Source: a virus (lineage: Duplodnaviria > Caudoviricetes). Taken from it: a stretch of DNA of 64,000 bases. The stretch spans positions 1-64,000 of the IMG/VR virus record IMGVR_UViG_3300043432_000237, one strand, 5' to 3'. The first letter of the stretch is position 1; the number at the start of each line of letters is the position of its first letter. The position numbers were made by a program, and so were the translations under genes. A model generated the notes under the pieces. That model saw only the letters and a program-made list of their open reading frames with translations, had not been told where the DNA came from and ran no database searches. This document shows positions 32,242 through 54,194 of this stretch, in pieces.

Positions 32242-32715
32242 ATGGAACAGCAACTGCATCTGGATCAACTCGCCGGCTACCTCACGCGCACCGACGCGCT
32301 GCTACAGCTGACGAAGCAGCAAGCGACTTCTCTGTCTCCCGAGACGCAGGCCGCGCTGGCTGCGCTGGAGGCCGAGCGTGCAGCGTGGCCGGAGTGGGAC
32401 ATCGGGTCGATGACGTGCAATACCGGAGCGCAGAAGCAGCTGCCCTGGGCGCTGCCCGCAACGGTGGAGGTTTCGGCTCCCACCGACAAACCCTTCCTGG
32501 TGAGCGAGGTGGACTTCGGTAATGCACCGGTCAACGTGGACGTGCGCGCCCCGGGTCAGCTCAAAGCGTTTGCCACGGGCTCGGGCGTAATCAGTTGCTG
32601 GTGCGTGTTGCCCCCAGGCGAGAAGCTCACGCTGAGGATCACGCCCCAGGTGCCGGGGGCTCAGCTCACGAGTCTGCCCGTCGTGAAAGGCTACCCTCTC
32701 GGCCGCGCCGAGTAG
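32242..32715 (+). CDS. Helix plus small beta-sandwich protein (possible minor capsid/penton single jelly roll)
   Basis: AAGGAG SD; PFLVSEV...VLPPGEKLTLRIT...VVKGY strand pattern. Confidence 0.5.
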   Translation: MEQQLHLDQLAGYLTRTDALLQLTKQQATSLSPETQAALAALEAERAAWPEWDIGSMTCNTGAQKQLPWALPATVEVSAPTDKPFLVSEVDFGNAPVNVDVRAPGQLKAFATGSGVISCWCVLPPGEKLTLRITPQVPGAQLTSLPVVKGYPLGRAE

Positions 32716-32767
32716 CACGTGTCCGAAAGTTTGGGTGGCAGAATGATGCCAGGTAACCTCCTGGGTC

Positions 32768-33382
32768 ATGTCGGCAGTTGGCCTGCGTAGGCTCTCACCC
32801 GTCCTCACGCTCCTGAACACTCCAGGTTTCGATCTGGAGGGCATCAACACTCATGAGCTGCCGGACGGAGCGATTTGCTACTGCGCAGAAACGAAGTGCG
32901 ACTTTCAGCTCGACCTGACGTCCACGGCTGCAGCAGTGGTGGGTGCGGTCGTTGTGCCGCTGTCCGGACCTGGACGCTGGAAGTCTGCAGCGCCTTCGGT
33001 GCAAGGCAGCTCGACCGTGTTCCGGCGCTCGGACTTCACTCCGCTGACGACGCCGAGCAATGTCCAGGCCACGCTGTTCTCCTTTGCCCTGGATGCCTAC
33101 CAGGACGGCACATACGACCTGGGCATCCTGGTGCAGCTGCGCAACGAGGCAACGGGTGACACGGCATCCTACCGGCGCGTGGCAACCTTCAAGGTCGTCG
33201 CAGGCGTGGTGACGCAAGTGTCGACCACCGACGCGACGTACGACAAGGTGGACGCAGCGCTGGCCGCGTGCGTGGTGACCATCGACACGAGCGGCGGCGA
33301 CGCGCGTGTGCAGGTGACCGGCTTGCTCGCGACGCCGCTGACCTGGACAGGTGGGTACGAAAGCGCGCTGACGCTCTACTAG
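32768..33382 (+). CDS. Virion appendage protein with shared N-terminal adaptor domain
   Basis: GLRRLSP..ELPDGAIC.C.ET.CD.QL...GPGRW shared with 51522..52964. Confidence 0.65.
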   Translation: MSAVGLRRLSPVLTLLNTPGFDLEGINTHELPDGAICYCAETKCDFQLDLTSTAAAVVGAVVVPLSGPGRWKSAAPSVQGSSTVFRRSDFTPLTTPSNVQATLFSFALDAYQDGTYDLGILVQLRNEATGDTASYRRVATFKVVAGVVTQVSTTDATYDKVDAALAACVVTIDTSGGDARVQVTGLLATPLTWTGGYESALTLY

Positions 33383-33392
33383 CCAGGTTCAC

Positions 33393-34694
33393 ATGCTGAG
33401 GATGTTCAACAACCTGGGCTGGTCTCCGACAGACGTCGCTGACCTCGTCTTTTGGGGTGACGCCTCCAAGGAGCTGCCCGGAGCAAGCGTGCTCTTCACA
33501 GACCGAAGCGGCAGTGGCAACCATGCTGTGGGTACCGGGACCGTGGGCACAACCGTGCAAAACGGTCTGCGCACGATGCGGTTCAACGGCACCACGGATA
33601 AGTTCGCCACACCCAACGTCGACTGGACCGCGGTCAACGCCTTCACGATCTGCACGGTGTTCAAGTCGAACAGTGTCGCCGTGGACCAAGCCATTTGCAC
33701 GAAGGGCTACAGCGGATACCCGTTTGCGTCAGAGGGGACGATGTTTTACATCGACACCTCTGTGTCTGCCGAGGTGAAGGGGGCGCAGTACAGCGCCGGC
33801 AACAACTTCAACGTCAAGGATCTGGACGCGGACAACGGACAGAGTTTTGCTGTGCGCTCGCAGCGCGTAAATCGAGCGTTGGCCGCAGCGTACCAGCAGA
33901 GCTTCACGCGCGATGGTGGCATCTGTTACGACCCGGTCACCTTTGGTGGCACCGCTGCGGCAGCCGGCCTCGGGAACAGCCCGATCTACATCGGCGTGCA
34001 CGGCAACGGGACCAACATCCCGCTCTCGGGAGACATCGCAGAGATCCTGATCTTCTCGCGTCGTCTGACCGACGACGAGCTGCGTCGGGTCGAAATGTAC
34101 TTGGGCATCAAGTGGGCGTTGCCGTACCGCTCCATCTATCCGCTCGGCAACTCCATCACGTACGGAGACGTGAACGACGGGTGGCGAGGCCCACTGATGG
34201 ACTCGAACCTGATCACGCTGGTCTCGCGAGGAAATCTCCTCGCCCCGGGCGTCTACCATCACGAAGGACACCCGGGTGCGGCGATTGCGTTCATCGACGC
34301 CAACATCACTGGCTACTGGAACTCTGCCCGAGGCAGAGAAATCCTGCTGACCATCGGCACCAATGACGCGCTTACTCCTGGTTTGCGCGCTGGCATGCTG
34401 GCTGCCTACGACACGCTGCTCAACACGATCGACGCGCTCTCGCCTGCGCCGTCGATCGTCTGGTGCGCGACGCTCACGCCCCTGGGTGACGCGCCGAGCG
34501 ACGCTGCGGTCAACACCTTCAATGCGGGTCTGCCAGCGGTGGTCGCCGGACACCCCAAGGCTCGCTACGTGGACGTAGGCTCGTGTCTGACCGTGGCTGA
34601 CCTGGCGGACTTCATCCACCCGACGCCTGCCGGATTCTTGAAGATGGGCCAGCGTTGGGCCAACGTCCTGAACGGCCTGGTCATCCCGCCCTGA
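33393..34694 (+). CDS. LamG/ConA-like lectin domain fused to an SGNH hydrolase
   Basis: WGDAS..DRSGSGNHA...SGDIAEILIFSRRL; GNSIT, IGTND, DFIHP. Confidence 0.8.
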   Translation: MLRMFNNLGWSPTDVADLVFWGDASKELPGASVLFTDRSGSGNHAVGTGTVGTTVQNGLRTMRFNGTTDKFATPNVDWTAVNAFTICTVFKSNSVAVDQAICTKGYSGYPFASEGTMFYIDTSVSAEVKGAQYSAGNNFNVKDLDADNGQSFAVRSQRVNRALAAAYQQSFTRDGGICYDPVTFGGTAAAAGLGNSPIYIGVHGNGTNIPLSGDIAEILIFSRRLTDDELRRVEMYLGIKWALPYRSIYPLGNSITYGDVNDGWRGPLMDSNLITLVSRGNLLAPGVYHHEGHPGAAIAFIDANITGYWNSARGREILLTIGTNDALTPGLRAGMLAAYDTLLNTIDALSPAPSIVWCATLTPLGDAPSDAAVNTFNAGLPAVVAGHPKARYVDVGSCLTVADLADFIHPTPAGFLKMGQRWANVLNGLVIPP

Positions 34695-34753
34695 GCGCTC
34701 ACGTGTCCGAAAACTTGAGGCGGCTGGCGCAGGACCCGTACAGTGCCAGGTGA

Positions 34754-35287
34754 ATGCAAAACCGCCTGGAGCTGTCGCCGCCAACCGTGACGCGCCCCTT
34801 CCGCGGGCCCGAGGACACCGTGCGCGAAATGGTGCGCGCGGTGCTGGGGCCGCGAGGCGAGCGCTCGATGCTGGTGCGCACGATGACCGAGCAGTGCGTG
34901 CACCTGCTGCAGGACAAGGACTACCAGAGCGAGCTAATCGCCATCCGCAACTTCGTCGCCACCAAGGGTCGTTACACCAACGACTCACTGGGCGTCGAGG
35001 TGGTGAAGGATCCGCAGCGCCAGGTGGAAGAGATCCTGGCCCGCGGTGTGACCGTCGGCGACTGCGACGACTGCGCCACGCTGATTGCCACCATGTGCCG
35101 CCAGGTGGGCCGCGAGGCCGAGTTCGTGACGGTGGGCTTCGGCTCCCCGAACACCTACTCGCACGTGTTCACGCGCGTGCGCGAGCCCAAGAGCAAACAG
35201 TGGATCGTGCTGGACACGGTGGCGGGTAGCGACGAAGCCAAGATGCTCCGTCGGGTGACGACCTGGCGAGCATGGAGGATTGACTGA
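34754..35287 (+). CDS. Transglutaminase-like (papain-fold) Cys protease
   Basis: GDCDD, YSHVF, WIVLD: Cys-His-Asp triad. Confidence 0.85.
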   Translation: MQNRLELSPPTVTRPFRGPEDTVREMVRAVLGPRGERSMLVRTMTEQCVHLLQDKDYQSELIAIRNFVATKGRYTNDSLGVEVVKDPQRQVEEILARGVTVGDCDDCATLIATMCRQVGREAEFVTVGFGSPNTYSHVFTRVREPKSKQWIVLDTVAGSDEAKMLRRVTTWRAWRID

Positions 35288-36051
35288 TGAGCTACGTTGC
35301 TGTCGGAGCCCTTACGCGCGTGTCCACCATCAACGCCCCCGCGGTACCGGTCTCGAACCCGTCGGCTGGGCAGGCCAGTAGTTTCAAGACGCGCATGACG
35401 ACGTACAGCGCACCGCCGCCGCCGCCCGCTGCCGCCCCGACCAACCAGGTCGAGTTCGGCGTGCCCATGCAGAAGACGGTGCAAGCCCCCCAGGCCACGG
35501 TGCAACAGGTAGTGCCAGTGCCCCAGGCCGTGTTGCAGCAGGCGGTTCCGGTCGCGGAAGCCTCGGTGCAAAAGGTGCCTAGTCTGCCCGTGCAGCCCAC
35601 GGTTACGCCGCCGCCCTCCAGCTGGTCGCCGCTCCAGGCGCCCGTCAAAGTCGAGGTGCCCGCGCCCGCGCCCAAGTTGTCCCCCATCAGCTTGGGCTTG
35701 CAGTACGCGCTCATTCCGCCGCCGGCCGCGCCGGCCGCGCCGGCCGCGCCGCGGGCTGCTCGTCGGCCAGCTCCGGCTCCGGCTGCGCGCCCGAGCGCAG
35801 GCAGCTGGCTGAGCCGCCCGGCCGCGCCGCTGGTGCCGCCGGCCGTGATGAGCTACCTGCCGGGCGCCAGCTGGTCAGCGGCGCCGGCTCCCGTCATCAC
35901 CAACACGCAACAGGTGACGCTGCCGCCGTCGGTGCGCGAGCCATCCGAGGCTCCTGCTGGCATGAGCAAGCGTGACTGGATGATCGCGGGGTTGATCGGA
36001 CTCGTCGCAGTGGGTGCGGCGGCCGTGTACGTGAAGCAGAAGAAAGGCTGA
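35287..36051 (+). CDS. Pro-rich tail-anchored membrane protein
   Basis: C-terminal WMIAGLIGLVAVGAAAVYV-KQKKG. Confidence 0.7.
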   Translation: MSYVAVGALTRVSTINAPAVPVSNPSAGQASSFKTRMTTYSAPPPPPAAAPTNQVEFGVPMQKTVQAPQATVQQVVPVPQAVLQQAVPVAEASVQKVPSLPVQPTVTPPPSSWSPLQAPVKVEVPAPAPKLSPISLGLQYALIPPPAAPAAPAAPRAARRPAPAPAARPSAGSWLSRPAAPLVPPAVMSYLPGASWSAAPAPVITNTQQVTLPPSVREPSEAPAGMSKRDWMIAGLIGLVAVGAAAVYVKQKKG

Positions 36052-36056: not shown

Positions 36057-36491
36057 ATGTTGGGTCAGACAGGTTTCATGGTTCCGGGGCCGACGGCCTA
36101 CAGTCCGCCGCGCGGATTCCCCACGTGCGTGCCGGCCGATCGCAAGGCGCTCGCCGAGTACGCCTGCAAGCGCTACCAGACCGTCAAGGGACTGGGCACG
36201 GTGGCCGATCCGTACGCGGTGGCCCCCGCCTGCTACGTCGCGGCCATGCCGACCTGTGCGCCGACGCTGGTGCGCAGCTCGTTCCCGACGGCGCAGCTCA
36301 GCACGTCCGTCCTGAACGCCCTGCGGACGCCACCCGTCCTGAACACCGAGCCGCAGCCCATTCCGCCGCCCCCGGCGCCCGCTCCGTCGAGCAACAAGGC
36401 GCTGGTCGTCGGTGGCATTCTGGCCGCCGCGCTGGTCGTCGGCGGTGGCTACCTGGTCTACAAGTCCAGGAAGAAAACCGCAGCCGCCTGA
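36057..36491 (+). CDS. Tail-anchored membrane protein
   Basis: VKGLG motif; TM followed by KSRKK. Confidence 0.7.
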   Translation: MLGQTGFMVPGPTAYSPPRGFPTCVPADRKALAEYACKRYQTVKGLGTVADPYAVAPACYVAAMPTCAPTLVRSSFPTAQLSTSVLNALRTPPVLNTEPQPIPPPPAPAPSSNKALVVGGILAAALVVGGGYLVYKSRKKTAAA

Positions 36492-36543: not shown

Positions 36544-37194
36544 ATGACGGCTTTCCCCAATCAGCCCATCGGTGGCCGGCTCCCGACGATGTGGGAGGTC
36601 GGCCCGAGCGACTTGCGCTACTCGTCGAGCACTGCGCCGGCCATGCAGACCCAGATCGATCGGGCGCACGGGCGTCATCTCGCCGGGACCGACGACCAGG
36701 TCCAGGACGAGGCCGCCGATCAAGGCATGGCCAAGAACGAGCTGGACTACTACGCGCAGATGGACGACGTCCAGGGCGCGGGCGTGTTCGATCCGCCGGG
36801 TAGTCATGGCAACATCCACCCCGACGCCGGGATCTTCACGGCGCGGTTCGACGTGCCGGGCTACCTCGCCCGCGAGCGCTTCAACCGCCCGAGCGAAGTC
36901 ATCGACGCCACCACGGGCCGCCCGACGATCTACGTCAACGGCGGCGCCGTGGCGATGGACGACAGCGCGCGCGTGGCGTTCATCGAGAACGATCAGTACC
37001 AGACGCCGCAGCCGGTACTGGACTCGCTGGCCGAGCACCGCATGCCGGGCCGCTCGACCGTCAACGTCCAGCAGAACCCGCAAGCCATCGGCGCCGTCTC
37101 GCAGCCGATGAGCGGGATCAAGCTGTTCGCGATCACGGCCGCTGTCGGCCTGGCCGCGGGCGCCGCCTACGCGGCGTTCCGCAAGAAGAAGTGA
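36544..37194 (+). CDS. Tail-anchored membrane protein
   Basis: GGAG SD; GAGVF and AGIF motifs; TM followed by RKKK. Confidence 0.7.
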   Translation: MTAFPNQPIGGRLPTMWEVGPSDLRYSSSTAPAMQTQIDRAHGRHLAGTDDQVQDEAADQGMAKNELDYYAQMDDVQGAGVFDPPGSHGNIHPDAGIFTARFDVPGYLARERFNRPSEVIDATTGRPTIYVNGGAVAMDDSARVAFIENDQYQTPQPVLDSLAEHRMPGRSTVNVQQNPQAIGAVSQPMSGIKLFAITAAVGLAAGAAYAAFRKKK

Positions 37195-37200: not shown

Positions 37201-37479
37201 ATGGACTGGGAGCAGGCAGCAGCTGGGACCGGGGACTATCACAGCTACCCGATCACGCCGGGCGTGGGCGACGTCTACAGTGACGCCGCGGTCAGCCAGG
37301 CGCGCGCCATTTGGGGTGCGCTCAGCGTCGCGGGCGCTGCTGCCAGTGCCTACCACGGCTACAAGCGCACGCAGAGCGTCGGCTGGGCGTTCGTGTGGGC
37401 GCTGTGCGGCTCGATCGCTCCGGTCGTCACCGTGCCCGTGGCCATCGCGCAGGGATTCGGCAAGCCGAAGCGAGGGTGA
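37201..37479 (+). CDS. Small two-TM membrane protein
   Basis: PGVGD; AASAYHGYKR..SVGWAFVW..IAQGFGKPK. Confidence 0.7.
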   Translation: MDWEQAAAGTGDYHSYPITPGVGDVYSDAAVSQARAIWGALSVAGAAASAYHGYKRTQSVGWAFVWALCGSIAPVVTVPVAIAQGFGKPKRG

Positions 37480-37485: not shown

Positions 37486-38937
37486 ATGGCGTTCTATCGG
37501 GTGCTGGTGGCAGAAAACGGTCGCATGCGCGAAGCAGGCGAGGTGCGCCTTGTGGAGCGTGCCAGCAACGCCGAGCTGGAGCGCGTGCTCGCCGACATAT
37601 CAGTCTTCGCGCCCCGGGGACAAGACCGAGTGAAGTGGACCGCAGAGGGCGCCACCATCACGGATGCGCACGGCGACCTGGTGGTACTGAAGAAGGTGGA
37701 GCGCATGAAGGCCAATGCAATGCGGATCCGTAAAGACTGTGCGCACTGTGGTCACCACATGTCGGCGCACCGGTACGACCCGGCAGTGCGCGGCGGTCCG
37801 CAACGCTGCTCTGTGCATGGGTGCCGCTGCACGGTGTTCGAGCGCGCAGCGAAGGGCGCGAGGAAAGTGAAGTTGGAGGCCAACGTGCGCAAGCAGCACT
37901 TTGCTGGGTACGACTTTTCCTCGGGTCCCGAAGGAACGGTAGTGCATCGTCCGCATGCGTCAGAGCTGCGCAGCGGCGATCGGGTCAAGTACAAGGACGT
38001 GAACCTGACCGACCAGGGCACAGTCGTATCGGCATCCGGTAAGTGGGCAGAGGTGCGTTGGGACCGATACCCGAACACTGCCACCAGAGAGTGGGCAGAC
38101 AATCTGAAAGTAGTGTCTCAGATGAACCGAAACTCACGTCACGCTCAGCTCGACTCGCGCACGCGCGAGATCGCCGAGACCGCTCCCATCCTGAACGACG
38201 GCGAGTTCGACTGGAAGGGCGAGGAGGGGCTGCTGCGCATCTGGATGGGCCAGCACGCTCCGACCTTCCTGTACTACTTCGGCAGCAGCGTCGAGGACGC
38301 TTTCGAGGAAGCGGTCGAATGGGCCGATGACCACGCTCCGGGCTTGCTGTTTATGCTGGGGCTCGAAGAGTACAAAGGAGCGGCCGAGGACGAGGGCATC
38401 GAGTGGAACGACGCCTGGCCGGACTTCGAGGACCCGGACTTCCAGCGAGTGGTCGATGCTGCCGAAGCAGACATGACTATCATCGGGCACACCACGCTCA
38501 AGAACGGCAATGCGGTACCAAGCTGGGAGTGGGGAGTCGACGAGATCCACGGCGAGGAGCGCGAGATCGTGACCGCGCGCGCCGCGCCGTACACGTACCG
38601 CATGACCTACGAGATCGTGACCCCGGAGAGCGCCGAAGATGGTGACGCCGCGGAGCGTGGGTGGGAAGTCGAGGAGCCCGCCGGACCCTTCTCACTCGAA
38701 GACCTCGTGCGGGAGGTCAACGATCACACCTGGGTCGAGTGGTCGAACAGCAACCCCACGGGCCAACGGGGCGAGTGGCTGATCAGCGAAGCGGAGCAGA
38801 ACTACTCCACCGGCGAAGACACCAGCTACCACCTGTTCATCGAACGGGTGGACGGGAAGCCGCTTTCCACGGCAGAGATCAAGGACATCAGCAAGGCGCT
38901 CGGTGTCTCGACGTTCGGCATGATGTTTCGGACCTGA
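37486..38937 (+). CDS. Modular polyprotein-like protein (Zn finger, SH3/KOW-like and acidic modules)
   Basis: CAHCGH..H..CSVHGCRC; LRSGDRVKY..GTVV..AEVRWD; modules separated by MKAN, LEAN, MNRN. Confidence 0.65.
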   Translation: MAFYRVLVAENGRMREAGEVRLVERASNAELERVLADISVFAPRGQDRVKWTAEGATITDAHGDLVVLKKVERMKANAMRIRKDCAHCGHHMSAHRYDPAVRGGPQRCSVHGCRCTVFERAAKGARKVKLEANVRKQHFAGYDFSSGPEGTVVHRPHASELRSGDRVKYKDVNLTDQGTVVSASGKWAEVRWDRYPNTATREWADNLKVVSQMNRNSRHAQLDSRTREIAETAPILNDGEFDWKGEEGLLRIWMGQHAPTFLYYFGSSVEDAFEEAVEWADDHAPGLLFMLGLEEYKGAAEDEGIEWNDAWPDFEDPDFQRVVDAAEADMTIIGHTTLKNGNAVPSWEWGVDEIHGEEREIVTARAAPYTYRMTYEIVTPESAEDGDAAERGWEVEEPAGPFSLEDLVREVNDHTWVEWSNSNPTGQRGEWLISEAEQNYSTGEDTSYHLFIERVDGKPLSTAEIKDISKALGVSTFGMMFRT

Positions 38938-38940: not shown

Positions 38941-39546
38941 ATGACTATGCAGATGCCCGGCTACCCTCCTGGAGTTCCCAACCCGCTCGTGCGGCACGTG
39001 CACCCGTACCCCACGCGCTTCCATGGCACGATCTACACGCGCCCGGTGTTCGGGCTGCCGTACGTGCTCAGCCCGGGCAACGTCGCCATGCCGGGTGAGA
39101 TCGCCGGCCTGGGCGACTACAACGTGGGCCAGGGCGTGTTCCGCCCGGGCGGCTACGGCGGCGGCGTGTTCGACGGCAACCTCGCGGGACTCGGAGCCAC
39201 GGATCCGGTGGCGGCGGCCCAGACCAACCTCACCCAGCTGCAAGCCACCATTTCGGCGCTGGCGTCCCAGATGGCGTCGGTGACGCCCAACCAGGCCGCT
39301 CTGCTGGCAGAGCAGATCGCTGCGCTGCAGAAGCAGGAGACCGCGCTCAAGGCGGAGATCAAGAAGCTGCAGAGCGTGCCGAAGGTGCCCGTGTCGTTCT
39401 CGCCTCCAGTGGCCGCTCCGCCGGTGCAGACGGCGCCAGTCGAGTCGCTGATGGTGCCCAGCGACAACAAGTGGGTCATGTTCGTGGTGGGTGGCGGAAT
39501 CGCCATCGGTGCGCTGATCTACCTCAAGAAGAAGAAGAAGATCTGA
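38941..39546 (+). CDS. Tail-anchored membrane protein with short coiled coil
   Basis: IAGLGDY, LAGLGAT, GVF motifs; TM followed by KKKKK. Confidence 0.75.
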   Translation: MTMQMPGYPPGVPNPLVRHVHPYPTRFHGTIYTRPVFGLPYVLSPGNVAMPGEIAGLGDYNVGQGVFRPGGYGGGVFDGNLAGLGATDPVAAAQTNLTQLQATISALASQMASVTPNQAALLAEQIAALQKQETALKAEIKKLQSVPKVPVSFSPPVAAPPVQTAPVESLMVPSDNKWVMFVVGGGIAIGALIYLKKKKKI

Positions 39547-41039: not shown

Positions 41040-41049
41040 GAGAGCGACC

Positions 41050-46468: not shown

Positions 46469-47221
46469 ATGGCAAAAGTAGTTTCCATTCGCGAGCGCGT
46501 TCACCAGCCCTTCTACGACACCCTCGTCCGCACGGCGGGTCTCACGGCCGGTGCGCTCACCGACAACACCTCCCTCTTCACCAGCAACGGTGCACGCACC
46601 GAGGCGACGACCAACCTGATCAACGGCGCCACGCTGCCCTCCGATCAGAGCCACGTCGTGCTCGCGCTCCGCGTCTTCACCTGGTACCGCAACCCGCGCC
46701 TGCGCGTGGCCGGTGCCGGTGCCGGCGAGATCGCGCAGAACGGTGACTACAACTTGCTGGCCCCCTGGCTCGCGGGCGGCGCGGCCGTCGGCCAGGCCCC
46801 CGGTCAGGTGCAGGACGTGTACCGCCTGCACTGGCAGACCGAGGAGCAGCTGCACTGGTCGTTCGGGACCGGGCTCAAGAACTCGATCGACAACATGCCG
46901 ACCTGGTACTTCCCGGCGGGCGGCGGCATCTCGGGCGACATGGGTGGGACGACCGACCTCATCCACTGGCAGAACTCGGGCTACGACGGGCACGCCGGCA
47001 TCCTGCGGCTCGCTCGCGCCGTCCTGATTCCGCCTCGCCAGAACATCCTGTGCCAGGCCAAGGTCTTCGCCCTCCCGAACGCGGGTCAGGCGGTCACCTT
47101 CGGCACGACCCAGGGTGCGCGCGACATGCTCAACCTCCGCGACAACCTGAACGCCATCGACGCGATCGGGAAGTGCGTGATGTTCTGCTTCGACGGCCTC
47201 TTCTCGCGCGACGTTCAGTGA
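46469..47221 (+). CDS. Putative major capsid protein (single jelly roll), 250 aa
   Basis: Strong SD, flanking hairpins, strongly biased codons; QPFYDT..SLF..TNL..GATLP..HVVLALRV...LIPPRQNI...VMFCFDG beta pattern; follows the core-protein gene. Confidence 0.6.
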   Translation: MAKVVSIRERVHQPFYDTLVRTAGLTAGALTDNTSLFTSNGARTEATTNLINGATLPSDQSHVVLALRVFTWYRNPRLRVAGAGAGEIAQNGDYNLLAPWLAGGAAVGQAPGQVQDVYRLHWQTEEQLHWSFGTGLKNSIDNMPTWYFPAGGGISGDMGGTTDLIHWQNSGYDGHAGILRLARAVLIPPRQNILCQAKVFALPNAGQAVTFGTTQGARDMLNLRDNLNAIDAIGKCVMFCFDGLFSRDVQ

Positions 47222-47230
47222 TCCCACACG

Positions 47231-47264
47231 CGCCGGTGGGGGTCCTCTCCGGCCCCCTCCGGCG
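47231..47264 (+). terminator. GC-rich hairpin after the capsid gene (weak U-tract)
   Basis: CGCCGG.GGGGG...CCCCC.CCGGCG. Confidence 0.5.
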
Positions 47265-47291
47265 TTCGTCTGCTCCCGAAGAGCGTGGCAC

Positions 47292-47360
47292 GAGCGGCGC
47301 CGCGCTGGCAGCCCAAGCCGCTACGGGATCTGGTTCGCCAGGTCTCGTAGCGGCCCGCTC
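47292..47360 (+). other. Structured intergenic RNA element with UUCG tetraloop
   Basis: GCCGCTACGGGATCTGG-TTCG-CCAGGTCTCGTAGCGGC (47317-47354), enclosed by GAGCGG/CCGCTC. Confidence 0.65.
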
Positions 47361-47414
47361 AGACCCTTTGATCCTCAACTCCCAGCCCTCGCCTGAGCGA
47401 GCACGGGGTTTCCC

Positions 47415-48365
47415 ATGAACGTCAATCAGCAGCTCTTGAACCAGCTCAACGCCGCGGCGCAGAACGCCCGCGTCGCATTCGAGCGCGCCGCCCGCGCCGA
47501 ACAGCAGGGCCAGGCCTTGTACGCCCAGGCATCGCAGCTCGCCGGTGAGCTGGAGGCCATGAAGCGCGTCGTCGCCAACCTCGAAGTCTCGCGCTCCGGC
47601 GCTCCGGCTTCCATCCAGCGGGTGGAGAACATCCCGGGCCGACGCATCCCGTTCGATGCACTGGTCGACATCGCCATCGGTGACTCGGTGCAGTCGGTGC
47701 AGCAGGGCTCGATCACCATCTCGCAGGAAGGCCCGTTCGTGGGCGTCAGCCGCGTGATGGCGCTGCTCAGCACGTTCGAGTTCCAGTACCGCGATCCGGT
47801 CTCGGGCGCCGCCAGCGCCTTCCAGGGTCGCTCCTACGGCCGCTACCGTCCCGCGCACAGCGCCTGGGACCTGAACGACAGCATGGTCTCGCCGCAGGTC
47901 TCGCAGGCCGTGGGCTTCCCCGGCACCGGCGCGCCGCACGTGACCAGCCCCGGCACGGCGTCCAGCTTCCGCTCGATGGAGGGCGACTTCCGCATCATCG
48001 TCGAGAACGCCGGCTCCAGCTTCCCGCGCTCGAACCAGGAGGTCCCCTCGGCGTTCTGGTCGCGCGCCATCAACGAGCCCTTCGAGCTGGGCGCGCTCGA
48101 CGTCTTCGAGCGTGGCGAGGTCATCGTCTTCAAGGTGCTGCCGCTGCACCCGAACAACCCGAGCTACGGCAACCTGAGCGCGTTCGGCGCGCCCAACGCC
48201 AGCTTCCCGTTCGTGACGGCCGGCTTCGATGCCGTCGAGGGCGTCAACGACCAGAACGACGCGAACGCCTCCACGACCGATCCCGTGACGCGCCTGGCGA
48301 ACGCCATCGTCACGATCGGCTACCACGGCTACCGCATCATCCAGCAGCCGGGTCTGCCGGGCTGA
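47415..48365 (+). CDS. Putative second capsid protein (N-terminal coiled coil plus jelly roll)
   Basis: GSITISQEGPFVGV...DVFERGEVIVFKV...VTIGYHGYRI. Confidence 0.55.
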   Translation: MNVNQQLLNQLNAAAQNARVAFERAARAEQQGQALYAQASQLAGELEAMKRVVANLEVSRSGAPASIQRVENIPGRRIPFDALVDIAIGDSVQSVQQGSITISQEGPFVGVSRVMALLSTFEFQYRDPVSGAASAFQGRSYGRYRPAHSAWDLNDSMVSPQVSQAVGFPGTGAPHVTSPGTASSFRSMEGDFRIIVENAGSSFPRSNQEVPSAFWSRAINEPFELGALDVFERGEVIVFKVLPLHPNNPSYGNLSAFGAPNASFPFVTAGFDAVEGVNDQNDANASTTDPVTRLANAIVTIGYHGYRIIQQPGLPG

Positions 48366-48382
48366 GGCGTGCCGACCGAGAG

Positions 48383-48415
48383 GGTCACCGGAGGGATTGC
48401 GAGCCTCCGGTGGCC
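48383..48415 (+). terminator. Hairpin between capsid-like genes
   Basis: GGTCACCGGAGG-N9-CCTCCGGTGGCC followed by ATTTC. Confidence 0.55.
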
Positions 48416-48436
48416 ATTTCGAGGTAGGCTCACACC

Positions 48437-49312
48437 ATGACGGACTACCGCAACCAGCTGTCGTCAGCCTTCCAGCTCCCGAGCATGGGTCATGTGCCGC
48501 GCGACGCCGGAGGCCCGCTCGGTCCCGGTGGTGGAGCGCACCCTGCGCCGAGCGCTCAGGCTGCGCCGCACCCGGAGCCCGCGCCGGACTTCGTGCGCAC
48601 GGTCGCAGCCGGCGGCGCGCTGCCCGAGCTGTTGCTGCACCCGACCTTCCTGCCCTTCGAGAACTTGTTCCGGCGGCTGCCGGAGGAGGCGATGTTCAAC
48701 GCCTCGCCCGACCGCCCCTACAAGTTCGAGCTGGGCGCGTTCGAGGTCCCCAAGAACCAGGCGCTCCTGCTCGCCGACTTTCGGTTCGCGCTGCATCGCT
48801 TGAGCGGCGCCGCCGCCTCCGACACGGTGCCGATGGAGCCCGAGCGGCTGAGCATGCTGCTGGCGTTCGATCTCACGATCGCCAACAACCGCAAGGCGCA
48901 GCTGCGCATGGAGATCGATCCGGTCACCATCCAGGCACAGAAGGAAGCCTTCCAGAGCCAGGTGTCGGGCGGCACGATCTTCCCCGGCGCGCGCACGGGC
49001 GGCTCTGCGCTCAGCCCGGCCAACAACCTGCAGTACGCGCTCTCGCGCTTCGCGCAGTCGGTGGTGCCGGGTGGCCTGGGCCTCTCGGGCTTGCCGAACC
49101 GCCCGCGCCGCCTGGGCGCCGAAGACTTGCCCTTCACGATGGTCGCCGTCGAGACCCAGCGCGTCCAAGCGAGCTGCGTGGTCTTCCGGCCCATCCCCAT
49201 CCCGATCGCGTTCTTCCAGTGCGACATTTCGGGAGTGCTGATGAGCATGAACACGATGCGCGCGCTCTTCGATGCAGTGAAACCTGCCGTCGAGCGTGGA
49301 GGCATCCGATGA
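48437..49312 (+). CDS. Putative third capsid-like jelly-roll protein
   Basis: FELGAFEVPKNQALLL...FTMVAVETQRVQASC...FFQCDISGVL. Confidence 0.55.
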   Translation: MTDYRNQLSSAFQLPSMGHVPRDAGGPLGPGGGAHPAPSAQAAPHPEPAPDFVRTVAAGGALPELLLHPTFLPFENLFRRLPEEAMFNASPDRPYKFELGAFEVPKNQALLLADFRFALHRLSGAAASDTVPMEPERLSMLLAFDLTIANNRKAQLRMEIDPVTIQAQKEAFQSQVSGGTIFPGARTGGSALSPANNLQYALSRFAQSVVPGGLGLSGLPNRPRRLGAEDLPFTMVAVETQRVQASCVVFRPIPIPIAFFQCDISGVLMSMNTMRALFDAVKPAVERGGIR

Positions 49313-49430
49313 CTTGGGAAAGCGACCGGCCCATGGAGCCCGCGAGCGTTGCAGCGGATCGGACAACTGCTGCAGCGAGCACGAGCCTTCCGGCTTGGGC
49401 CGGTCGTTTCTCCATTCGTGAGGTGAGCTG

Positions 49431-50180
49431 ATGGCCCTGGGAGCATATTTCCGAGCAGTCGAGAGTCAGCCGATCCCGGAGCCGCAGCTGGACGGGCTGG
49501 GCTCGCAGGATCAGTTCGCGGTCGAGGCGTTGCAGGAGCTGCTGGAGGCACAGGGTATCCGGCCTGCGGCGGCGATGGCGCCCTGGGGCATCCAGGAGGG
49601 CAGCGTCGACTGGCAAGCCGAGCACCCGGACCACAGCCTGCTGCTGTATCCGATCAGCGATGGCCTGCTGACGCAGGTCGAGAAGTCGACCTTCGGCATG
49701 CCCGTGCCGGCCGTCGCGATCTTGACCACCACGCCCGTCGTGCTGGCCAAGGCGCGCGAGGCCTACGACGATACGCCGTACCGCTTTCACGCCGTCGAGG
49801 GCGTCTACCGCCTGGACGACAAGAAGCCGGTGCCGACGATCTACTTCCTCTACTGGGGTCACTACCGCGAGCCCAACGACAGCGGAGGTGGCCGCTCGGC
49901 GCTGCAGAGCGTCGCGTCCATGCTCGGCGGCTCGCTCGTCTTCCCGTTGCAGCTGCCGCGCACCGGCCAGGAGCGCCAGCACCCGTCGGTGACCTTCCAG
50001 CTCGCCCTGGCGGCGCAGCTGAGCGGCCAGCCGGCGGCAGCGCTGCCGCCGACGGCGGTGCCCAGCGCGCTGGCACCCAGTGCCGCCCCGGCGCCTAGCG
50101 CGGCCTGGTGGCTGCTCCCGGTGGTCGGCGGGCTGGCCGCCTATGGCGGCTACCGCTGGTGGAAAGGACGCAAGAGCTGA
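49431..50180 (+). CDS. Tail-anchored membrane protein
   Basis: MALGAY, LDGLGS; TM followed by RWWKGRKS. Confidence 0.7.
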   Translation: MALGAYFRAVESQPIPEPQLDGLGSQDQFAVEALQELLEAQGIRPAAAMAPWGIQEGSVDWQAEHPDHSLLLYPISDGLLTQVEKSTFGMPVPAVAILTTTPVVLAKAREAYDDTPYRFHAVEGVYRLDDKKPVPTIYFLYWGHYREPNDSGGGRSALQSVASMLGGSLVFPLQLPRTGQERQHPSVTFQLALAAQLSGQPAAALPPTAVPSALAPSAAPAPSAAWWLLPVVGGLAAYGGYRWWKGRKS

Positions 50181-50329
50181 TGGCCAAGATCGTTGCTATC
50201 TCGGGCACCGAGCCCCAACCCAACCAGGCGGCACTCATGAGCGCAGCAGCACTCGGATGGACGGTCGTGCTCGGCGTGACCTTCTACATCTTCTGGAGCA
50301 CGGCCAAGCCGGCCCGCAAGCGGAGGTAG
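50180..50329 (+). CDS. Small tail-anchored peptide
   Basis: TM followed by KPARKRR. Confidence 0.6.
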   Translation: MAKIVAISGTEPQPNQAALMSAAALGWTVVLGVTFYIFWSTAKPARKRR

Positions 50330-50332
50330 ATC

Positions 50333-50548
50333 ATGATCTCGCTCACCGATCTGGGAACCGTGGCCGACGTCGCCCAACAGGTCGAGGCCAACCCCTTCAT
50401 GCTGGCGGGCCGTCTGATCGGCCTGAGCGGTGACGAGCAGAAGGCGGGCGTGCCGATGTGGGCGTGGGTCTCGCTGGCGTTCGTGGGCGGAGCAGTCGCG
50501 ACGCTGAAGTACGGTCCGCAGATCCGCGCCAAGCTCAAGCAGCTCTGA
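50333..50548 (+). CDS. Small membrane protein
   Basis: GGAGG SD; TDLGT; C-terminal TM. Confidence 0.65.
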   Translation: MISLTDLGTVADVAQQVEANPFMLAGRLIGLSGDEQKAGVPMWAWVSLAFVGGAVATLKYGPQIRAKLKQL

Positions 50549-50600
50549 TTTTTGGAGGTCGAGCAGACCTTTGATAGCGTCGGACCTGGAGCCACTCAAC

Positions 50601-50942
50601 ATGTACCAGCCAACCAGCAAAGCAGACGGGATCTTCTCACACGGTGTGGGTCCGAGCTACGCCTACGGCGCGCAGCGAACGGCGCACGCAGACGGCTCGC
50701 TCGGCGAGTACGCCTACGGCGCGCGCACCTCTTCGTTCGCGGACGGATCACTGGGTGGCTGCAGCAGCTGCTCGGGCATGGGCGCCCTGACGCCCGAGCT
50801 GGCGACCAAGGTGTTGTCCGCGATGCAGCCGCAGTTGCCCGCTGCACCGCCGATGTCACCGGTGGTGCGTGGTCTGCTCATCGGCGGCGGCGTGCTGGTC
50901 GTGGCCGCCATCGGCTACGCCGTGATGAAGAAGAAGGGATGA
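50601..50942 (+). CDS. Tail-anchored protein with duplicated YAYGA..ADGSLG motif
   Basis: GGAG SD; upstream TTGGAG-N17-TAGCGT; TM followed by MKKKG. Confidence 0.7.
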   Translation: MYQPTSKADGIFSHGVGPSYAYGAQRTAHADGSLGEYAYGARTSSFADGSLGGCSSCSGMGALTPELATKVLSAMQPQLPAAPPMSPVVRGLLIGGGVLVVAAIGYAVMKKKG

Positions 50943-50946
50943 GGTC

Positions 50947-51216
50947 ATGGCGCTAACGAATAGGTGCCTGAGCGGTCTCGGCGCGGCGTTCATCGAGATG
51001 CCCCGCGCCCGCCTCGGGTTCCGCGCGGGCGGCGTGTTCTCGCCGCGCGCTTCGGCCGCCGAGTACAAGCCGAGCCTGGGTGAAGTGCAGGCCGTGACGG
51101 AAAGCGCCAGCTCGATCGAACAGCGCCAGGAGAAGCAGAAGCTGCTGCTGGTGACGAGCCTGGCCAGCCTGGCCGTCGGCGCCGCCATCACCTACGCTGT
51201 GATGAAGAAGAGCTGA
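50947..51216 (+). CDS. Small tail-anchored protein
   Basis: LSGLGA, GGVF, SLGE; TM followed by MKKS. Confidence 0.7.
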   Translation: MALTNRCLSGLGAAFIEMPRARLGFRAGGVFSPRASAAEYKPSLGEVQAVTESASSIEQRQEKQKLLLVTSLASLAVGAAITYAVMKKS

Positions 51217-51221
51217 CCGCC

Positions 51222-51515
51222 ATGCAAGACGGTATCTTTCTCTCGTCTCCCACGCGGGGAACGCTGCCCACGTCGCGCAACGCGCTCATTGTGGCTCAGC
51301 GGCCGACTTCGCTGGGCCGAGTCAACTCGGCCGGCGTGGCCCTCACGTTCGGTGTGTTCGGTTTGGTGCTGGCCGGAGGAGCCTACGGGGGCTACCAGCT
51401 GGGTAGGCGTTACAAGCATCCCCTGGTGGGCGCCGCCGCGGGTGCTGCCGTCGCGTACGTCCCCGCCTGGATGGCGGGTGCTGTCACTGCGCTTCTCACG
51501 ATGGGCAGCGTGTGA
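51222..51515 (+). CDS. Small multi-TM protein
   Basis: DGIF, TSLG, glycine-zipper-like TMs. Confidence 0.65.
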   Translation: MQDGIFLSSPTRGTLPTSRNALIVAQRPTSLGRVNSAGVALTFGVFGLVLAGGAYGGYQLGRRYKHPLVGAAAGAAVAYVPAWMAGAVTALLTMGSV

Positions 51516-51521
51516 GGATCC

Positions 51522-52964
51522 ATGCAAGACGCTGGAATCGGGCTCCGCCGACTCTCCCCTCGCGACACCCTGGCCGGCGATCCGGGCGGGAGCATAACCG
51601 GCGTCAGCACCTACGAGCTGCCCGACGGAGCGATCTGTTGGTGTGTCGAAACGCAGTGCGACTACCAGTTGCACAAGAGTTCCACGACAGCGGCTGACGG
51701 AGTCTACGTCGTGGCGCCGGCCGCTGGCCCTGGTCGCTGGTTTCAACTGGCAGTGGGGAACAACGTGCTGGTGCAGCCGAGCTGGTACGTCAACGCGGTC
51801 ACTGGTTCAGACGCCAACGACGGCACGACGGCGCTGACCCCGCTGCTCACGTTGGCGGAGCTGTACCGTCGAACGGTGGGCAAAGTGTTCGCCGTGAACG
51901 CTACGGTGTACCTGAGTGGTGACTTCAGCGCAGAGGCACTGGTGCTGGACGCCTGCGTCGCGCCGGGGGTGCAGGTCACGGTGCGCGGTGAAGTCCGACA
52001 GGACGGCAGTTACTCTGTCGGGGCGTATACCGCGTACAACGGTGCAACGAGCACTCCGGCGGTAGTGAGCGACGGCGGAGCGACCGCATACGCTGGCGAC
52101 GTGGGCAAGATCGCGCGGATGACTTCGGGAGCGGCAATCAACTGCTCTGCTCCGATCATGAAGGCGACGGCCGCTGGAGCGTTCCGACCTGGACACTTCC
52201 AGTCGGTGGACTACGTGACGATGGCTCCGGGCGTCGGCGACACCTACGTGGTCGAGGAACTGCTCACCAAGGTAGGGACCATCCAAACGCGCATGAGCGG
52301 CAGCGGTGGAGACTACTCGGTCTATGCCCCGCGCCTGCTCGTGCGGGACCTGGATGTGTACCCGCCGGCAAACACGCCTCAAGACCTGTCGTTCAACGCA
52401 GGCGACGCGAGCGGAGCGGGCACCTTGCTCTACCGCGTGCGTCTGTCCGGTGGCGCCCTGGGCAATGTGTGGCTGACCGGTAGCGGGGTCCAGCTGCTCT
52501 GCACGTACTCCAAAGCCGATTGCTATCTCACCGTCGCCGGTTCAGCGCTCTACTGCTGGGGCTTCGTGGCGATGGGCGGGCTGCAGGTCAACAACAGCAT
52601 CTTGAATGTCCCCTTTGACATGATGCTGGTACAGGGTCACGCGGTTTACTTCTACGGAGGCCAAGTCGCCGCAGTCGCAGGCATCGGGTTCCTGGACATC
52701 GGAGCCGGCGACGGTGCCGGGCTGATCGTCAGCACCGGAGCCAACGTCGAGGCATCCGCCGGGACGTCGTACCTCTGGAGCAACGGAAACCTGTGCGCGT
52801 ACGGTATCCGAGTAGGAGCAGGATCGATGGTCACCTACGGAGTGAAGCCGACGGCCACCGGCGTCACGAACGACACGCTAGTCGGCGGGACCGCCAAGGC
52901 CTATGCCGCGATCCCCTACTTCGAGGCCGCCAACGGCGCGGGCATCGTGGTCTACCAGGGATAG
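51522..52964 (+). CDS. Spike/receptor-binding protein: shared adaptor plus beta-helix-like domain
   Basis: Adaptor shared with 32768..33382; WYVNAVTGSDANDG...PLLTL motif typical of the start of pectin-lyase-like folds. Confidence 0.7.
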   Translation: MQDAGIGLRRLSPRDTLAGDPGGSITGVSTYELPDGAICWCVETQCDYQLHKSSTTAADGVYVVAPAAGPGRWFQLAVGNNVLVQPSWYVNAVTGSDANDGTTALTPLLTLAELYRRTVGKVFAVNATVYLSGDFSAEALVLDACVAPGVQVTVRGEVRQDGSYSVGAYTAYNGATSTPAVVSDGGATAYAGDVGKIARMTSGAAINCSAPIMKATAAGAFRPGHFQSVDYVTMAPGVGDTYVVEELLTKVGTIQTRMSGSGGDYSVYAPRLLVRDLDVYPPANTPQDLSFNAGDASGAGTLLYRVRLSGGALGNVWLTGSGVQLLCTYSKADCYLTVAGSALYCWGFVAMGGLQVNNSILNVPFDMMLVQGHAVYFYGGQVAAVAGIGFLDIGAGDGAGLIVSTGANVEASAGTSYLWSNGNLCAYGIRVGAGSMVTYGVKPTATGVTNDTLVGGTAKAYAAIPYFEAANGAGIVVYQG

Positions 52965-53019
52965 AGCAGCCACCGAACCCTTGGCAGCGCCAGGCGCCCA
53001 GTGATAAGTCACCAGGCAG

Positions 53020-53610
53020 ATGGCCAATGAGCTGTTCGAGGCGCTGAGCAAGGTTGCGTTCTCCCTGCAGGGCTTGCCGCGCGGCTCACTGGGTGGCCCG
53101 GTCTGGGAAGAGCTGAAGCCCTGGCTGGAGAAGTTGATGTCACACGCGGCGCCCAAGTGGTTGCCGCGCCTGAGCTTCGCGTTCCCCTGCCAGGTGGCTG
53201 TGCATCGACAGGGCGTGCCCATTGGGCCCTGTCCGCACCGGGCCATCGCGAGCTGCGACGTCTGCGGTGGCGCCTGCTGCCTGCACCACGCGCGCATCGA
53301 CCAGCTGGGCGACGCCATCTGCTACCCGTGCGTGGCGCGCGCTGTGGCGGCACACCGTGGCGGCGGCGCACCTCCGGCGCCCCCTCCGCGCAGCAAGGCA
53401 GAAGAGCTGCGCTGGGCCCGCAAGCTGCTCAAGGTCAAGCCGGAGGACGACTGGGAGACCATCCGCGCGGCGCACCGGCGCGAGAGCGGAAAAACCCACC
53501 CGGACCGGCAGCGCACCGACAAGGCCAAGGCCAAGGCCACCGAGCGCTTCAAGCTGGTGCAGCAGGCGTTCGAGGTGCTCAAGCTCGAACACGGCCCCAA
53601 GACGGGCTGA
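53020..53610 (+). CDS. B-box-like Zn finger plus C-terminal J-domain
   Basis: CDVCGGACCLHH..CYPC; ARKLL.V..IRAAHR..THPDR..FKLVQQAFEVL. Confidence 0.85.
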   Translation: MANELFEALSKVAFSLQGLPRGSLGGPVWEELKPWLEKLMSHAAPKWLPRLSFAFPCQVAVHRQGVPIGPCPHRAIASCDVCGGACCLHHARIDQLGDAICYPCVARAVAAHRGGGAPPAPPPRSKAEELRWARKLLKVKPEDDWETIRAAHRRESGKTHPDRQRTDKAKAKATERFKLVQQAFEVLKLEHGPKTG

Positions 53611-53658
53611 CGTTCAGGTTTTTGGTCGATGGCCGAGCCGGGTGGTAGCCTGACCTCC

Positions 53659-53868
53659 ATGAGCTACGGATCGCTGGGTGAGAGCTACGCCATCACGCTG
53701 CCGGTGGTGGGGCACACCTCCATGGAGCTGCCGGTCCAGAAAATCACGCACGACGCCATGAGCTACGCGCTGGAGGATCTCAAGCTCCGCGTCAAGGCGA
53801 AGCTGCCGGTCGTGATCGGTGTCGGTCTGCTCGGCGTGGCCGGCTATCTCGTGATCAAGAGGATGTGA
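53659..53868 (+). CDS. Small tail-anchored protein (leaderless)
   Basis: TTGGTC-N18-TAGCCT-N7-ATG; MSYGSLGE; TM followed by KR. Confidence 0.65.
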   Translation: MSYGSLGESYAITLPVVGHTSMELPVQKITHDAMSYALEDLKLRVKAKLPVVIGVGLLGVAGYLVIKRM

Positions 53869-54194
53869 TGAGCTACGTGAACACCAGCAGGCCGTACTAC
53901 GAGCAGTTCCAGATCGACACGCCCCTCGAAGAGGGCACGATGGGCTGGTCGCGCGCTCCCTGGCCCGGGTGGGGTCAGAACGCCAACCTGATCGGTCCCA
54001 AGCAGATCGCGGTCGGCTCCAGCCCTGACGGACTCGGTGCGTACTACCGGAACCAGGAGAACCGCGCGATCGGCCAGGACGCTGGCTCGGGCGGTGGTGC
54101 GCTGGTGGTCGTGATGTTCGCGTGCGCGGTGGTCGGCGGGCTGGTGCTGCTCGGCAGCATGCGCGAGATCGGCAAGCAGCCGCGTCGTCGGTGA
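53868..54194 (+). CDS. Small tail-anchored protein
   Basis: MSY start, DGLGAY, AIGQD; TM followed by KQPRRR. Confidence 0.65.
   Translation: MSYVNTSRPYYEQFQIDTPLEEGTMGWSRAPWPGWGQNANLIGPKQIAVGSSPDGLGAYYRNQENRAIGQDAGSGGGALVVVMFACAVVGGLVLLGSMREIGKQPRRR

Follow-up and report, generated by a model that had tools for sequence, protein, structure and literature searches.

Candidate virion-morphogenesis genes with predicted jelly-roll proteins in a 125-kb circular virus genome from freshwater

The window analyzed here, a stretch of 64,000 nt, is the first 64 kb of a 125,036-nt contig listed as virus record IMGVR_UViG_3300043432_000237, and it contains a dense block of plus-strand genes at 34.7–54.2 kb that is almost without matches in Pfam or PHROGs. 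It is probable that this block comprises the virion-morphogenesis genes of a new lineage of large tailless bacterial viruses, which would have jelly-roll shell proteins and, probably, a membrane. The virus itself most likely represents a widespread uncultured lineage with double-stranded DNA (dsDNA) genomes of ~105–180 kb and a freshwater bacterial host, without the tailed-phage toolkit. The combination of a jelly-roll shell, membrane proteins and a DNA-condensing protein appears to have been described so far only in small viruses; the genomes of known bacterial and archaeal viruses that are tailless and contain a membrane measure 10–44 kb, and to our knowledge bacterial viruses above ~100 kb have so far all been tailed. 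If true, this division between small tailless and large tailed viruses would no longer hold, as jelly rolls, a membrane and a condensed core would be found together in a lineage of 105–180 kb. Such a lineage would also offer a bacterial system for studying how a large genome is enclosed without a terminase or an FtsK-type motor. Moreover, the candidate capsid genes are represented by hundreds of clusters in data from freshwater, sediment, groundwater and soil, and virus surveys based on marker genes would, in that case, overlook an entire class of large phages.

The genome is circular, with a length of ~124.9 kb: the terminal 127 nt are identical at both contig ends, which is the overlap expected from assembling a circular molecule, and IMG/VR lists the record as a virus with direct terminal repeats. 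A virus of more than 64 kb, as claimed by an original prediction made on the window, is thereby borne out. Because G+C is uniformly 66% across the entire sequence, genes were called by their third-position G+C (GC3). The source run is a freshwater metagenome, one freshwater sediment run contains a quarter of the sampled words, and groundwater and soil runs hold smaller shares (unverified); no RNA runs are among the sequencing runs listed as holding the genome. The genome under study (G0) was set beside six relatives of 116–179 kb (G1–G6), of which G2, G5 and G6 are rated 96–100% complete, and four of them (G1, G2, G5 and G6) were compared with it in full. The relatives in IMG/VR altogether span 63–179 kb (the 63-kb and 95-kb records without a completeness check), and collections of metagenome-assembled genomes (MAGs) contain entire contigs of 106 kb and 123 kb, assigned by binning to Planctomycetota and Pseudomonadota. 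MAG labels for homologue-bearing contigs conflict, the names being Gemmatimonadales, Pseudomonadota and Planctomycetota.

Predicted jelly-roll proteins and putative membrane and core components

Two neighbouring plus-strand genes, 46469–47221 and 47415–48365, which are under the strongest constraint in the lineage, are central to this reading. The first encodes a protein of 250 amino acids (aa) and is the best-conserved gene of the lineage. Its AlphaFold2 model, built on an alignment reaching down to 23% identity, has a predicted local distance difference test (pLDDT) of 83 and a predicted template modelling score (pTM) of 0.80, and consists of eight main strands and one helix. In Foldseek, the single probable PDB match of this model was the capsid protein of the archaeal Sulfolobus polyhedral virus 1 (SPV1; probability 1.0, E 3e-3), which was also ranked first by an independent wide structure search (Z 7.6), and a refined comparison with SPV1 6oj0_A gave Z 8.2 and a root-mean-square deviation of 3.6 over 136/178 residues. 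The next matches were P23-77 VP17 (Z 6.6 and 6.0), STIV (5.9), HHIV-2 (5.9), SH1 (5.7) and HCIV-1 (5.3), with a few non-capsid jelly rolls interspersed among the capsid matches. In BFVD, the best match (E 6e-5) was I1ZBH9, a 211-aa viral protein that has the length of SSIP-1 gp46, to which it may correspond, and SPV1 VP4 was found with a probability of 0.90.

The model of the second protein, which has 316 aa, combines an N-terminal 55-residue helix with a jelly-roll domain (pLDDT 67). Its best match was again SPV1 6oj0_A (Z 7.1), tied with the cellular jelly roll of PHM (Z 6.9), and capsid proteins of PBCV-1, EhV, HHIV-2 and HCIV-1 together with VP17, at Z 5.8–7.4, make up much of the match list. 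The stated noise ceiling of the structure comparison tool is Z 7–8. From these models, a jelly-roll fold of both proteins is well supported, and a specific kinship with the capsid proteins of membrane-containing icosahedral viruses is only suggested, by the consistent enrichment of such proteins among the matches. The 250-aa protein is a candidate for the major shell protein and the 316-aa protein a candidate for a second shell, vertex or sub-capsomer protein. A complex prediction for the pair returned a score of 0.00, which counts neither way.

Both proteins are widely distributed, with 686 homologous clusters at 90% for the 250-aa protein and 604 for the 316-aa protein, all of them 'hypothetical' and on contigs of up to 138 kb; the distant homologues P0287 and P0276 sit on contigs of <2.2 kb. 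The 250-aa protein is 79–80% identical in G1 and G2, 53–59% in G4–G6 and 34% in the most distant contig, where the only core genes detected were the 42220-like, 250-aa and 316-aa ones, and the 316-aa protein is 45–57% identical in relatives. Even with the tblastn threshold relaxed to E<=10, none of 50,697 deposited phage genomes matched the 250-aa protein. Sequence-profile searches of the PDB with the 250-, 316- and 291-aa families and that of 121345–122277 found nothing significant. Of the four beta-sandwich capsid candidates in the original prediction, two (46469 and 47415) are confirmed as jelly rolls in the AlphaFold2 models, and 32242–32715 finds no support. This plus-strand gene encodes a strain-specific protein of 157 aa within a variable host-recognition cassette, for which tblastn against ten related genomes or loci and searches of Pfam and PHROGs all came back empty. 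The idea that the capsid candidates are paralogues was not upheld either, as profile comparison by hhalign detected no sequence paralogy among the core candidate families compared; 32242–32715 is without homologues and was therefore not among them.

Around these genes, the block is rich in membrane proteins. According to its translations, 15 proteins carry a single hydrophobic helix at the extreme C-terminus followed by a Lys/Arg tail, and four additional membrane proteins bring the block total to 19; hence, 'about 20 tail-anchored' proteins, as first proposed, is right for these 15 and not for the other four. The syntenic blocks of two relatives are filled by the same type of C-terminally anchored protein.

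A plus-strand gene at 44506–46287, which in most relatives immediately precedes the 250-aa gene, encodes an Arg/Lys-rich repeat protein of 593 aa. Its first 330 residues contain 38% Lys plus Arg and 3 acidic residues, with some 50-aa windows reaching up to 62% Lys plus Arg, and are followed by 2–3 hydrophobic helices and then a Gly-rich acidic tail, which agrees with the protamine-like protein that had been noticed in the window. The homologues in G1 and G2, of 676 and 746 aa, share its position and layout and have other basic repeats. This protein may be a core protein that condenses the DNA and is tethered to the membrane.

The first conserved gene of the block, at 34754–35287 on the plus strand, encodes a transglutaminase-like (papain-fold) Cys-His-Asp enzyme (Pfam Transglut_core, E 3.2e-8) that has 56–62% identity in G1, G2, G5 and G6, and its DCDD, SHVF and D-x-VAG motifs are invariant in the aligned G0, G1 and G2 copies. 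A papain-fold enzyme at the head of the operon had been proposed, and the transglutaminase core in the first conserved gene accords with this, although the genes of 32242–34694, which are not conserved, precede it. The proteolytic maturation attributed to this enzyme is unproven, its basis being the transglutaminase fold and an enriched Gly-Leu-Gly motif only.

As to this motif, Gly-Leu/Met-Gly followed by Ala, Asp or Ser has 10 occurrences in the block's 26 proteins (38941–54194), where shuffling gives an expectation of 1.4 and a maximum of 6 in 1000, and just 3 occurrences in the other 32,000 residues; the same peptide is also present at 4398–5510 on the minus strand. In its tail, the Arg-rich protein of G1 and G2 has 4–5 tandem copies of Asn-Gly-Leu-Gly-Glu-Tyr-Phe-Ala-Gln. 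The peptide may serve for docking or mark a site of processing and, given the tandem repetition in G1 and G2, a role in binding is no less plausible than one in cleavage.

Gene order in the block is conserved across nearly all relatives and runs from the transglutaminase-like gene through several anchored proteins, the 42220 gene and the Arg-rich gene to the 250-, 316-, 291-, 249- and 71-aa genes and the J-domain gene. Further shared genes are those of the 862-aa coiled-coil protein, glycosyl- and methyltransferases, DnaB with its loader, and the cluster around 121345–122277, and the variable ones are 32242–34694 and most of 51522–52964.

Packaging genes, proposed assembly and competing explanations

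The original prediction saw no recognisable tailed-phage structural genes in the region, and this is confirmed by Pfam and PHROGs over 29.6–55.5 kb, in which no gene matches a head, packaging, tail, tape-measure or baseplate family; the sole matches there are those of genes 33393–34694, 34754–35287, 53020–53610 and 54199–54570 and of glycosyltransferases from 55389. In G0–G6, six-frame searches at E<=1 found none of the families Terminase_6N, TerL_ATPase, Phage_portal, Phage_capsid, FtsK_SpoIIIE and Pox_A32; every family was searched in four to six of these seven genomes. Among them, the HK97 family Phage_capsid was searched in six genomes (G3 left out) and Phage_portal, the only Pfam portal family searched genome-wide, in four; PHROGs gave no portal family for any large open reading frame (ORF). 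The large-ORF scans of G0, in which PHROGs and/or Pfam covered nearly all ORFs >400 aa except the low-GC3 stretch 101.8–104.1 kb, also found no terminase, portal, HK97 capsid, tape measure or baseplate, and no complete HK97 head-tail module was detected in the flanking contig of G0 or in the complete relatives. The sole exception in these scans was a phrog_1645 'virion structural protein', an accessory protein without homologue in relatives, which is also present in cyanomyoviruses and podovirus HMO-2011. The FtsK/HerA (A32/P9-like) packaging ATPase that had been expected produced no match at E<=1 either.

Walker-A proteins number only three in G0, namely DnaB, the DnaC-like protein and an AAA_5 ATPase, and G5 has DnaB alone. 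Since the AAA_5 ATPase is absent from distant relatives and G5 has only DnaB, no packaging enzyme of a known class is conserved. Two candidates were considered and rejected. The AAA_5 ATPase (72944–74107, minus strand) is MoxR-like, of a kind common in tailed phages, and missing from G4–G6; its comparison with the SSIP-1 gp40 ATPase by hhalign was not significant. The minus-strand block of 107–125 kb, wrapping to 1–12.9 kb, was suspected to be a hidden head-tail module, and it is mostly strain-specific with phrog_1645 as its only match; within it, the sub-cluster around 121345–122277 is conserved, with proteins too small for a terminase or portal.

In a large tailless virus of this kind, the 250-aa and 316-aa jelly rolls would form an icosahedral outer shell and the anchored proteins would populate a lipid layer beneath it, with their N-terminal domains bridging the membrane to the capsomers and their Lys/Arg tails facing the DNA. 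The 593-aa basic protein would condense the genome and tie DNA to the membrane, and the particle would be built around condensed DNA, as proposed for SPV1, instead of being filled by a motor. That no packaging enzyme is conserved, together with the basic gene fixed upstream of the 250-aa gene, fits such SPV1-like assembly by condensation. In addition, the transglutaminase-like enzyme would process or cross-link virion proteins, the variable genes 32242–34694 and 51522–52964 would encode vertex spikes, and the J-domain protein would recruit host Hsp70 for assembly. A bolder proposal, which we put forward tentatively, is that of a realm-level bacterial lineage that packs 105–180 kb without a motor, by protamine-like condensation, within a vesicle studded with anchored proteins and a single jelly-roll icosahedral shell; in this motor-less setting, the Gly-Leu-Gly-acidic-aromatic peptide would be the code by which proteins of the membrane and core dock to the shell or are marked for the transglutaminase-like enzyme. 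If true, the design of the archaeal virus SPV1 would here have its first counterpart in bacteria, at about six times the SPV1 genome size.

Several points weigh against a tailless membrane virus. The architecture is read from sequence alone, the Z scores of 8.2 and 7.1 sit at the noise ceiling of the tool, and cement proteins, fibre proteins and proteins of cells can have jelly rolls as well; confidence in the 316-aa model is only moderate, and its SPV1 match is tied with a cellular jelly roll. For the packaging ATPase, absence means that profile searches returned nothing, and extreme divergence of a terminase is conceivable. The true major capsid protein could be the product of 121345–122277 (~265 aa) or that of 48437–49312. 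Moreover, the variable part of the genome has genes typical of tailed phages, which are the phrog_1645 protein, tailspike-like proteins and the AAA_5 ATPase.

Among the alternatives, it is unlikely that the particle is not icosahedral, that is, that the genome belongs to an enveloped or pleomorphic virus or to a non-viral element such as a vesicle-spread plasmid, the jelly rolls being surface or nucleoid-associated proteins. The numerous membrane proteins and the lack of a packaging enzyme are consistent with this, and so are a plasmid-like maintenance set (ParB, DnaB, DnaC-like loader, beta clamp and integrase) and the binning of whole contigs into MAGs of differing phyla. However, there are no conjugation ATPases or relaxase, the three Walker-A proteins being replication-type or AAA+, and contig sizes are tightly clustered at ~105–140 kb; variable spike-like cassettes are typical of virions, and the closest structural neighbours of the 250-aa protein are mostly capsid proteins of icosahedral membrane viruses.

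A tailless membrane virus of the PRD1/PM2 type is similarly improbable. In that case, the 291-aa product of 48437–49312, a plus-strand gene always located directly after the 316-aa gene, would be a double jelly-roll capsid protein, the 250- and 316-aa proteins would be penton, spike-base or minor capsid proteins, and a divergent packaging ATPase would have gone undetected. As a weak lead in this direction, the four nearest named protein-atlas clusters of the 291-aa protein are PM2 P2 or PRD1 P3 capsid families, at a score of 0.77; PM2 P2 has a size near 291 aa. It is also generally known that double jelly-roll viruses have adjacent capsid and penton genes and many small membrane proteins (PMC6356626). 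However, the 48437–49312 family returned nothing by Pfam at E<=10 on 19 members and nothing by PDB profile, the protein is less conserved (30–46% in all relatives) than the 250-aa protein (53–80%), and in the searched genomes neither A32 nor FtsK was matched at E<=1, the shared P-loop proteins being replication-type only.

A highly divergent tailed phage with unrecognisable HK97 capsid, portal and terminase, in which the jelly rolls would be cement, decoration or fibre proteins and the membrane proteins would serve lysis, superinfection exclusion or host takeover, could account for the tailed-phage jelly-roll cement proteins in the match lists (Pam1 and KHP40, Z 5.4–6.2) and for the phrog_1645 protein, the tailspike-like genes and the AAA_5 family common in tailed phages. 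Yet it is very doubtful, as terminase and portal are the best-conserved tailed-phage genes and no gene shared by G0, G1, G2, G5 and G6 is large or similar enough, profiles found no match at E<=1 in the searched genomes, the suspected minus-strand module is mostly strain-specific, the 250-aa protein is without match in the deposited phage records, and jelly rolls as the most conserved genes would be unusual for decoration proteins.

Other genes of the block and the remaining genome

At 28.4–55.5 kb, almost all genes lie on the plus strand, as do all those described here from 28,385 to 54,194; gaps are short, 1- or 4-nt start-stop overlaps are frequent, and Shine-Dalgarno-like motifs precede 19/35 starts in the block. 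The upstream edge of the conserved block is formed by a 248-aa conserved protein (28385–29131; 33–42% identity in G1, G2, G5 and G6), which has no PHROGs match, and next to it lies an 862-aa protein (29634–32222; 26–34% in the same genomes) with a charged coiled-coil middle and a Pro/Gln-rich C-terminal third, which has no Pfam or PHROGs match and is a candidate scaffold or size-determining protein. The strain-specific gene 32242–32715 is followed by a 204-aa spike or receptor-binding candidate (32768–33382) and by a ConA-like lectin with an SGNH/GDSL esterase (33393–34694; Lipase_GDSL_2 E 1.7e-10, Laminin_G_3 E 9e-5). The latter has a single weak PHROGs match to a 'virion structural protein' (phrog_10356, E 5e-7), is not conserved in relatives, and is a candidate receptor-modifying spike enzyme. 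The N-terminal ~70 residues of 32768–33382 are common to the 480-aa spike candidate at 51522–52964, and the rest is variable; these two genes, otherwise unrelated, both match one G2 gene at 42–47%. The 480-aa protein has no Pfam or PHROGs match, its C-terminal part resembles repetitive beta structure, and only its N-terminal ~105 aa are conserved in G2, with 29% identity over 463 aa in G6. From these alignments, the shared N-terminal domain looks like a common adaptor plugging exchangeable spikes into the particle.

Downstream of the transglutaminase-like gene lie four C-terminally anchored proteins (35287–36051, 36057–36491, 36544–37194 and 37201–37479), each with a hydrophobic C-terminal helix and a Lys/Arg tail and the third conserved at 40–56% identity, and then a 483-aa soluble protein (37486–38937) without Pfam or PHROGs match. 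At the position of this gene, G1 (33759–35405) and G2 (3278–6553) have, within their morphogenesis blocks, an unrelated Lon-like and Mg-chelatase/ComM-like AAA+ protein, of which a homologue is absent from G0. Another four anchored proteins follow (38941–39546, 39546–39980, 40030–40671 and 40668–41039), several with Gly-Leu-Gly motifs, the last having a GC3 of 0.90 and being concealed in simple ORF lists. A 273-aa protein with three hydrophobic helices (41050–41871) has a 32% homologue in relative L041. The universally conserved core protein of ~190 aa (42220–42795) is 38–55% identical in nine relatives and 23% in a Planctomycetota-binned contig, with no Pfam or PHROGs match. Between it and the Arg-rich gene lie two membrane proteins (42792–44209), one of 104 aa with an N-terminal helix and one of 367 aa with a C-terminal anchor, the latter with a 34% homologue in L041.

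After the 291-aa gene, five small membrane proteins with hydrophobic helices occupy 49431–51515, of which 49431–50180, 50333–50548, 50601–50942 and 50947–51216 are C-terminally anchored and 51222–51515 has two helices; the 49431 and 50333 genes are conserved in all relatives. The J-domain (DnaJ) protein at 53020–53610 has a Cys-rich N-terminal part (Pfam DnaJ, E 4e-10) and is collinear and 28–48% identical in all relatives. Two C-terminally anchored proteins (53629–53868 and 53868–54194) close the block, with 53865–54194 conserved in most relatives; beyond it, Pfam identifies a DUF6527 protein (54199–54570) and, downstream of 55389, two glycosyltransferases.

In the rest of the genome, genes for replication and maintenance (SNF2 helicase, beta clamp, DnaC-like loader, DnaB, ParB and integrase), sugar-modifying enzymes, the AAA_5 ATPase and a GHKL ATPase were found. 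The last is the N-terminal GHKL (HATPase_c) domain of an 882-aa protein (107503–110151, minus strand), with blastp homologues in G1 and G2 at 38–40% and no tblastn match in G5 or G6. The beta-rich protein of ~265 aa at 121345–122277 (minus strand; 34–41% identical in G2, G5 and G6), neighboured by 114265–114852, 119452–119880 and 122133–122603, has no match in Pfam, PHROGs or the PDB and is a possible further virion protein. Three tandem paralogues of 371–375 aa (115182–118443, minus strand) are specific to G0 and match no known family. At 7262–11898 on the minus strand, strain-specific proteins of 975 and 566 aa are repetitive, beta-rich and tailspike- or fibre-like, and near them are C-terminally anchored proteins, one with a GxSxG hydrolase motif (4398–5510). 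A 143-aa protein with a Cys-x5-Arg phosphatase-type loop (19–450, minus strand) is 35–45% identical in all four fully compared relatives. At 84505–85667, three transfer RNA genes (Gln-TTG, Ile-AAT and Arg-ACG) adjoin an ARAGORN 'tmRNA' (transfer-messenger RNA) call with an odd tag peptide, which is probably false.

Comparison with known systems

No description of such a large tailless lineage was found in the literature, and the nearest described design is that of archaeal SPV1, not that of the adeno-, asfar- or poxviruses invoked by the original prediction. The analogy with adenovirus (VII, mu and adenain) lies in genes that are predicted to encode an Arg-rich protein for condensing DNA, a papain-like cysteine enzyme and capsid proteins with jelly rolls, whereas the enriched Gly-Leu/Met-Gly-[Ala/Asp/Ser] motif is not the known adenain consensus. 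Tectiviridae and Corticoviridae (PRD1 and PM2) resemble it in being tailless, in their many small virion membrane proteins and in spikes with a common N-terminal adaptor, but have genomes of 10–15 kb and, as hallmarks, a double jelly-roll capsid protein and an A32-like ATPase, neither of which was detected here.

Helvetiavirae (now realm Singelaviria, PMC12714852), which include Sphaerolipoviridae, Simuloviridae and Thermus phage P23-77, are tailless and have an internal membrane and two adjacent capsid genes for vertical single jelly rolls (PMC12643093, PMC12642351, PMC6356626). Two types of capsid protein are also known from Salisaeta phage SSIP-1, which is unclassified (PMC6356626, PMC5332951). 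The two adjacent predicted single jelly rolls are reminiscent of this arrangement, with the VP17, HHIV-2, SH1 and HCIV-1 chains ranking below SPV1 (Z 5.3–6.6); however, the genomes of Helvetiavirae and SSIP-1 are 16–44 kb with an ATPase as structural protein, and no FtsK or Pox_A32 match was obtained here at E<=1. Comparison of the 250-aa family with SSIP-1 gp45 and gp46 by hhalign was not significant (E 0.15–0.17). These two SSIP-1 proteins (NC_017983, 34635–35959; 210 and 211 aa) appear paralogous, gp46 matching a second site in the record, and the N-terminus of gp46 aligns non-significantly with that of the 250-aa family, including a common Pro-Phe-x-Asp-Thr.

SPV1 has a shell of single jelly-roll proteins (VP4/VP10 type) over a membrane, sub-capsomer proteins, proteins that extend through membrane and shell, and its DNA as a nucleoprotein coil or core, with no ATPase assigned (PMC8459092). 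As SPV1 already combines a jelly-roll shell, a membrane and a nucleoprotein core without an assigned ATPase, the statement that the predicted virus has no described equivalent was too strong. Membership in Portogloboviridae or Helvetiavirae fails, with the ATPase hallmark absent, the host domain and genome size of SPV1 different, and sequence similarity lacking. SPV1 has a hyperthermophilic archaeal host and 45 short genes in 20 kb, whereas the present lineage has 105–180 kb, bacterial-type DnaB, beta clamp and ParB, and a freshwater source, and in PDB profile searches SPV1 is without sequence similarity to the present jelly-roll proteins. The lipid layer, core and capsid geometry proposed for this lineage are predictions from genes. 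The likeness to SPV1 and Portogloboviridae nonetheless extends over several traits: both jelly-roll models have SPV1 as their top match (with Z of 8.2 and 7.1 bordering on the noise range), the dsDNA genome is circular, no packaging ATPase is recognisable, and a glycosyltransferase and a methyltransferase are encoded. By analogy, the Arg-rich 593-aa protein, a giant membrane-anchored repeat protein where SPV1 has a small VP1-type protein, is a candidate functional analogue of the SPV1 core protein.

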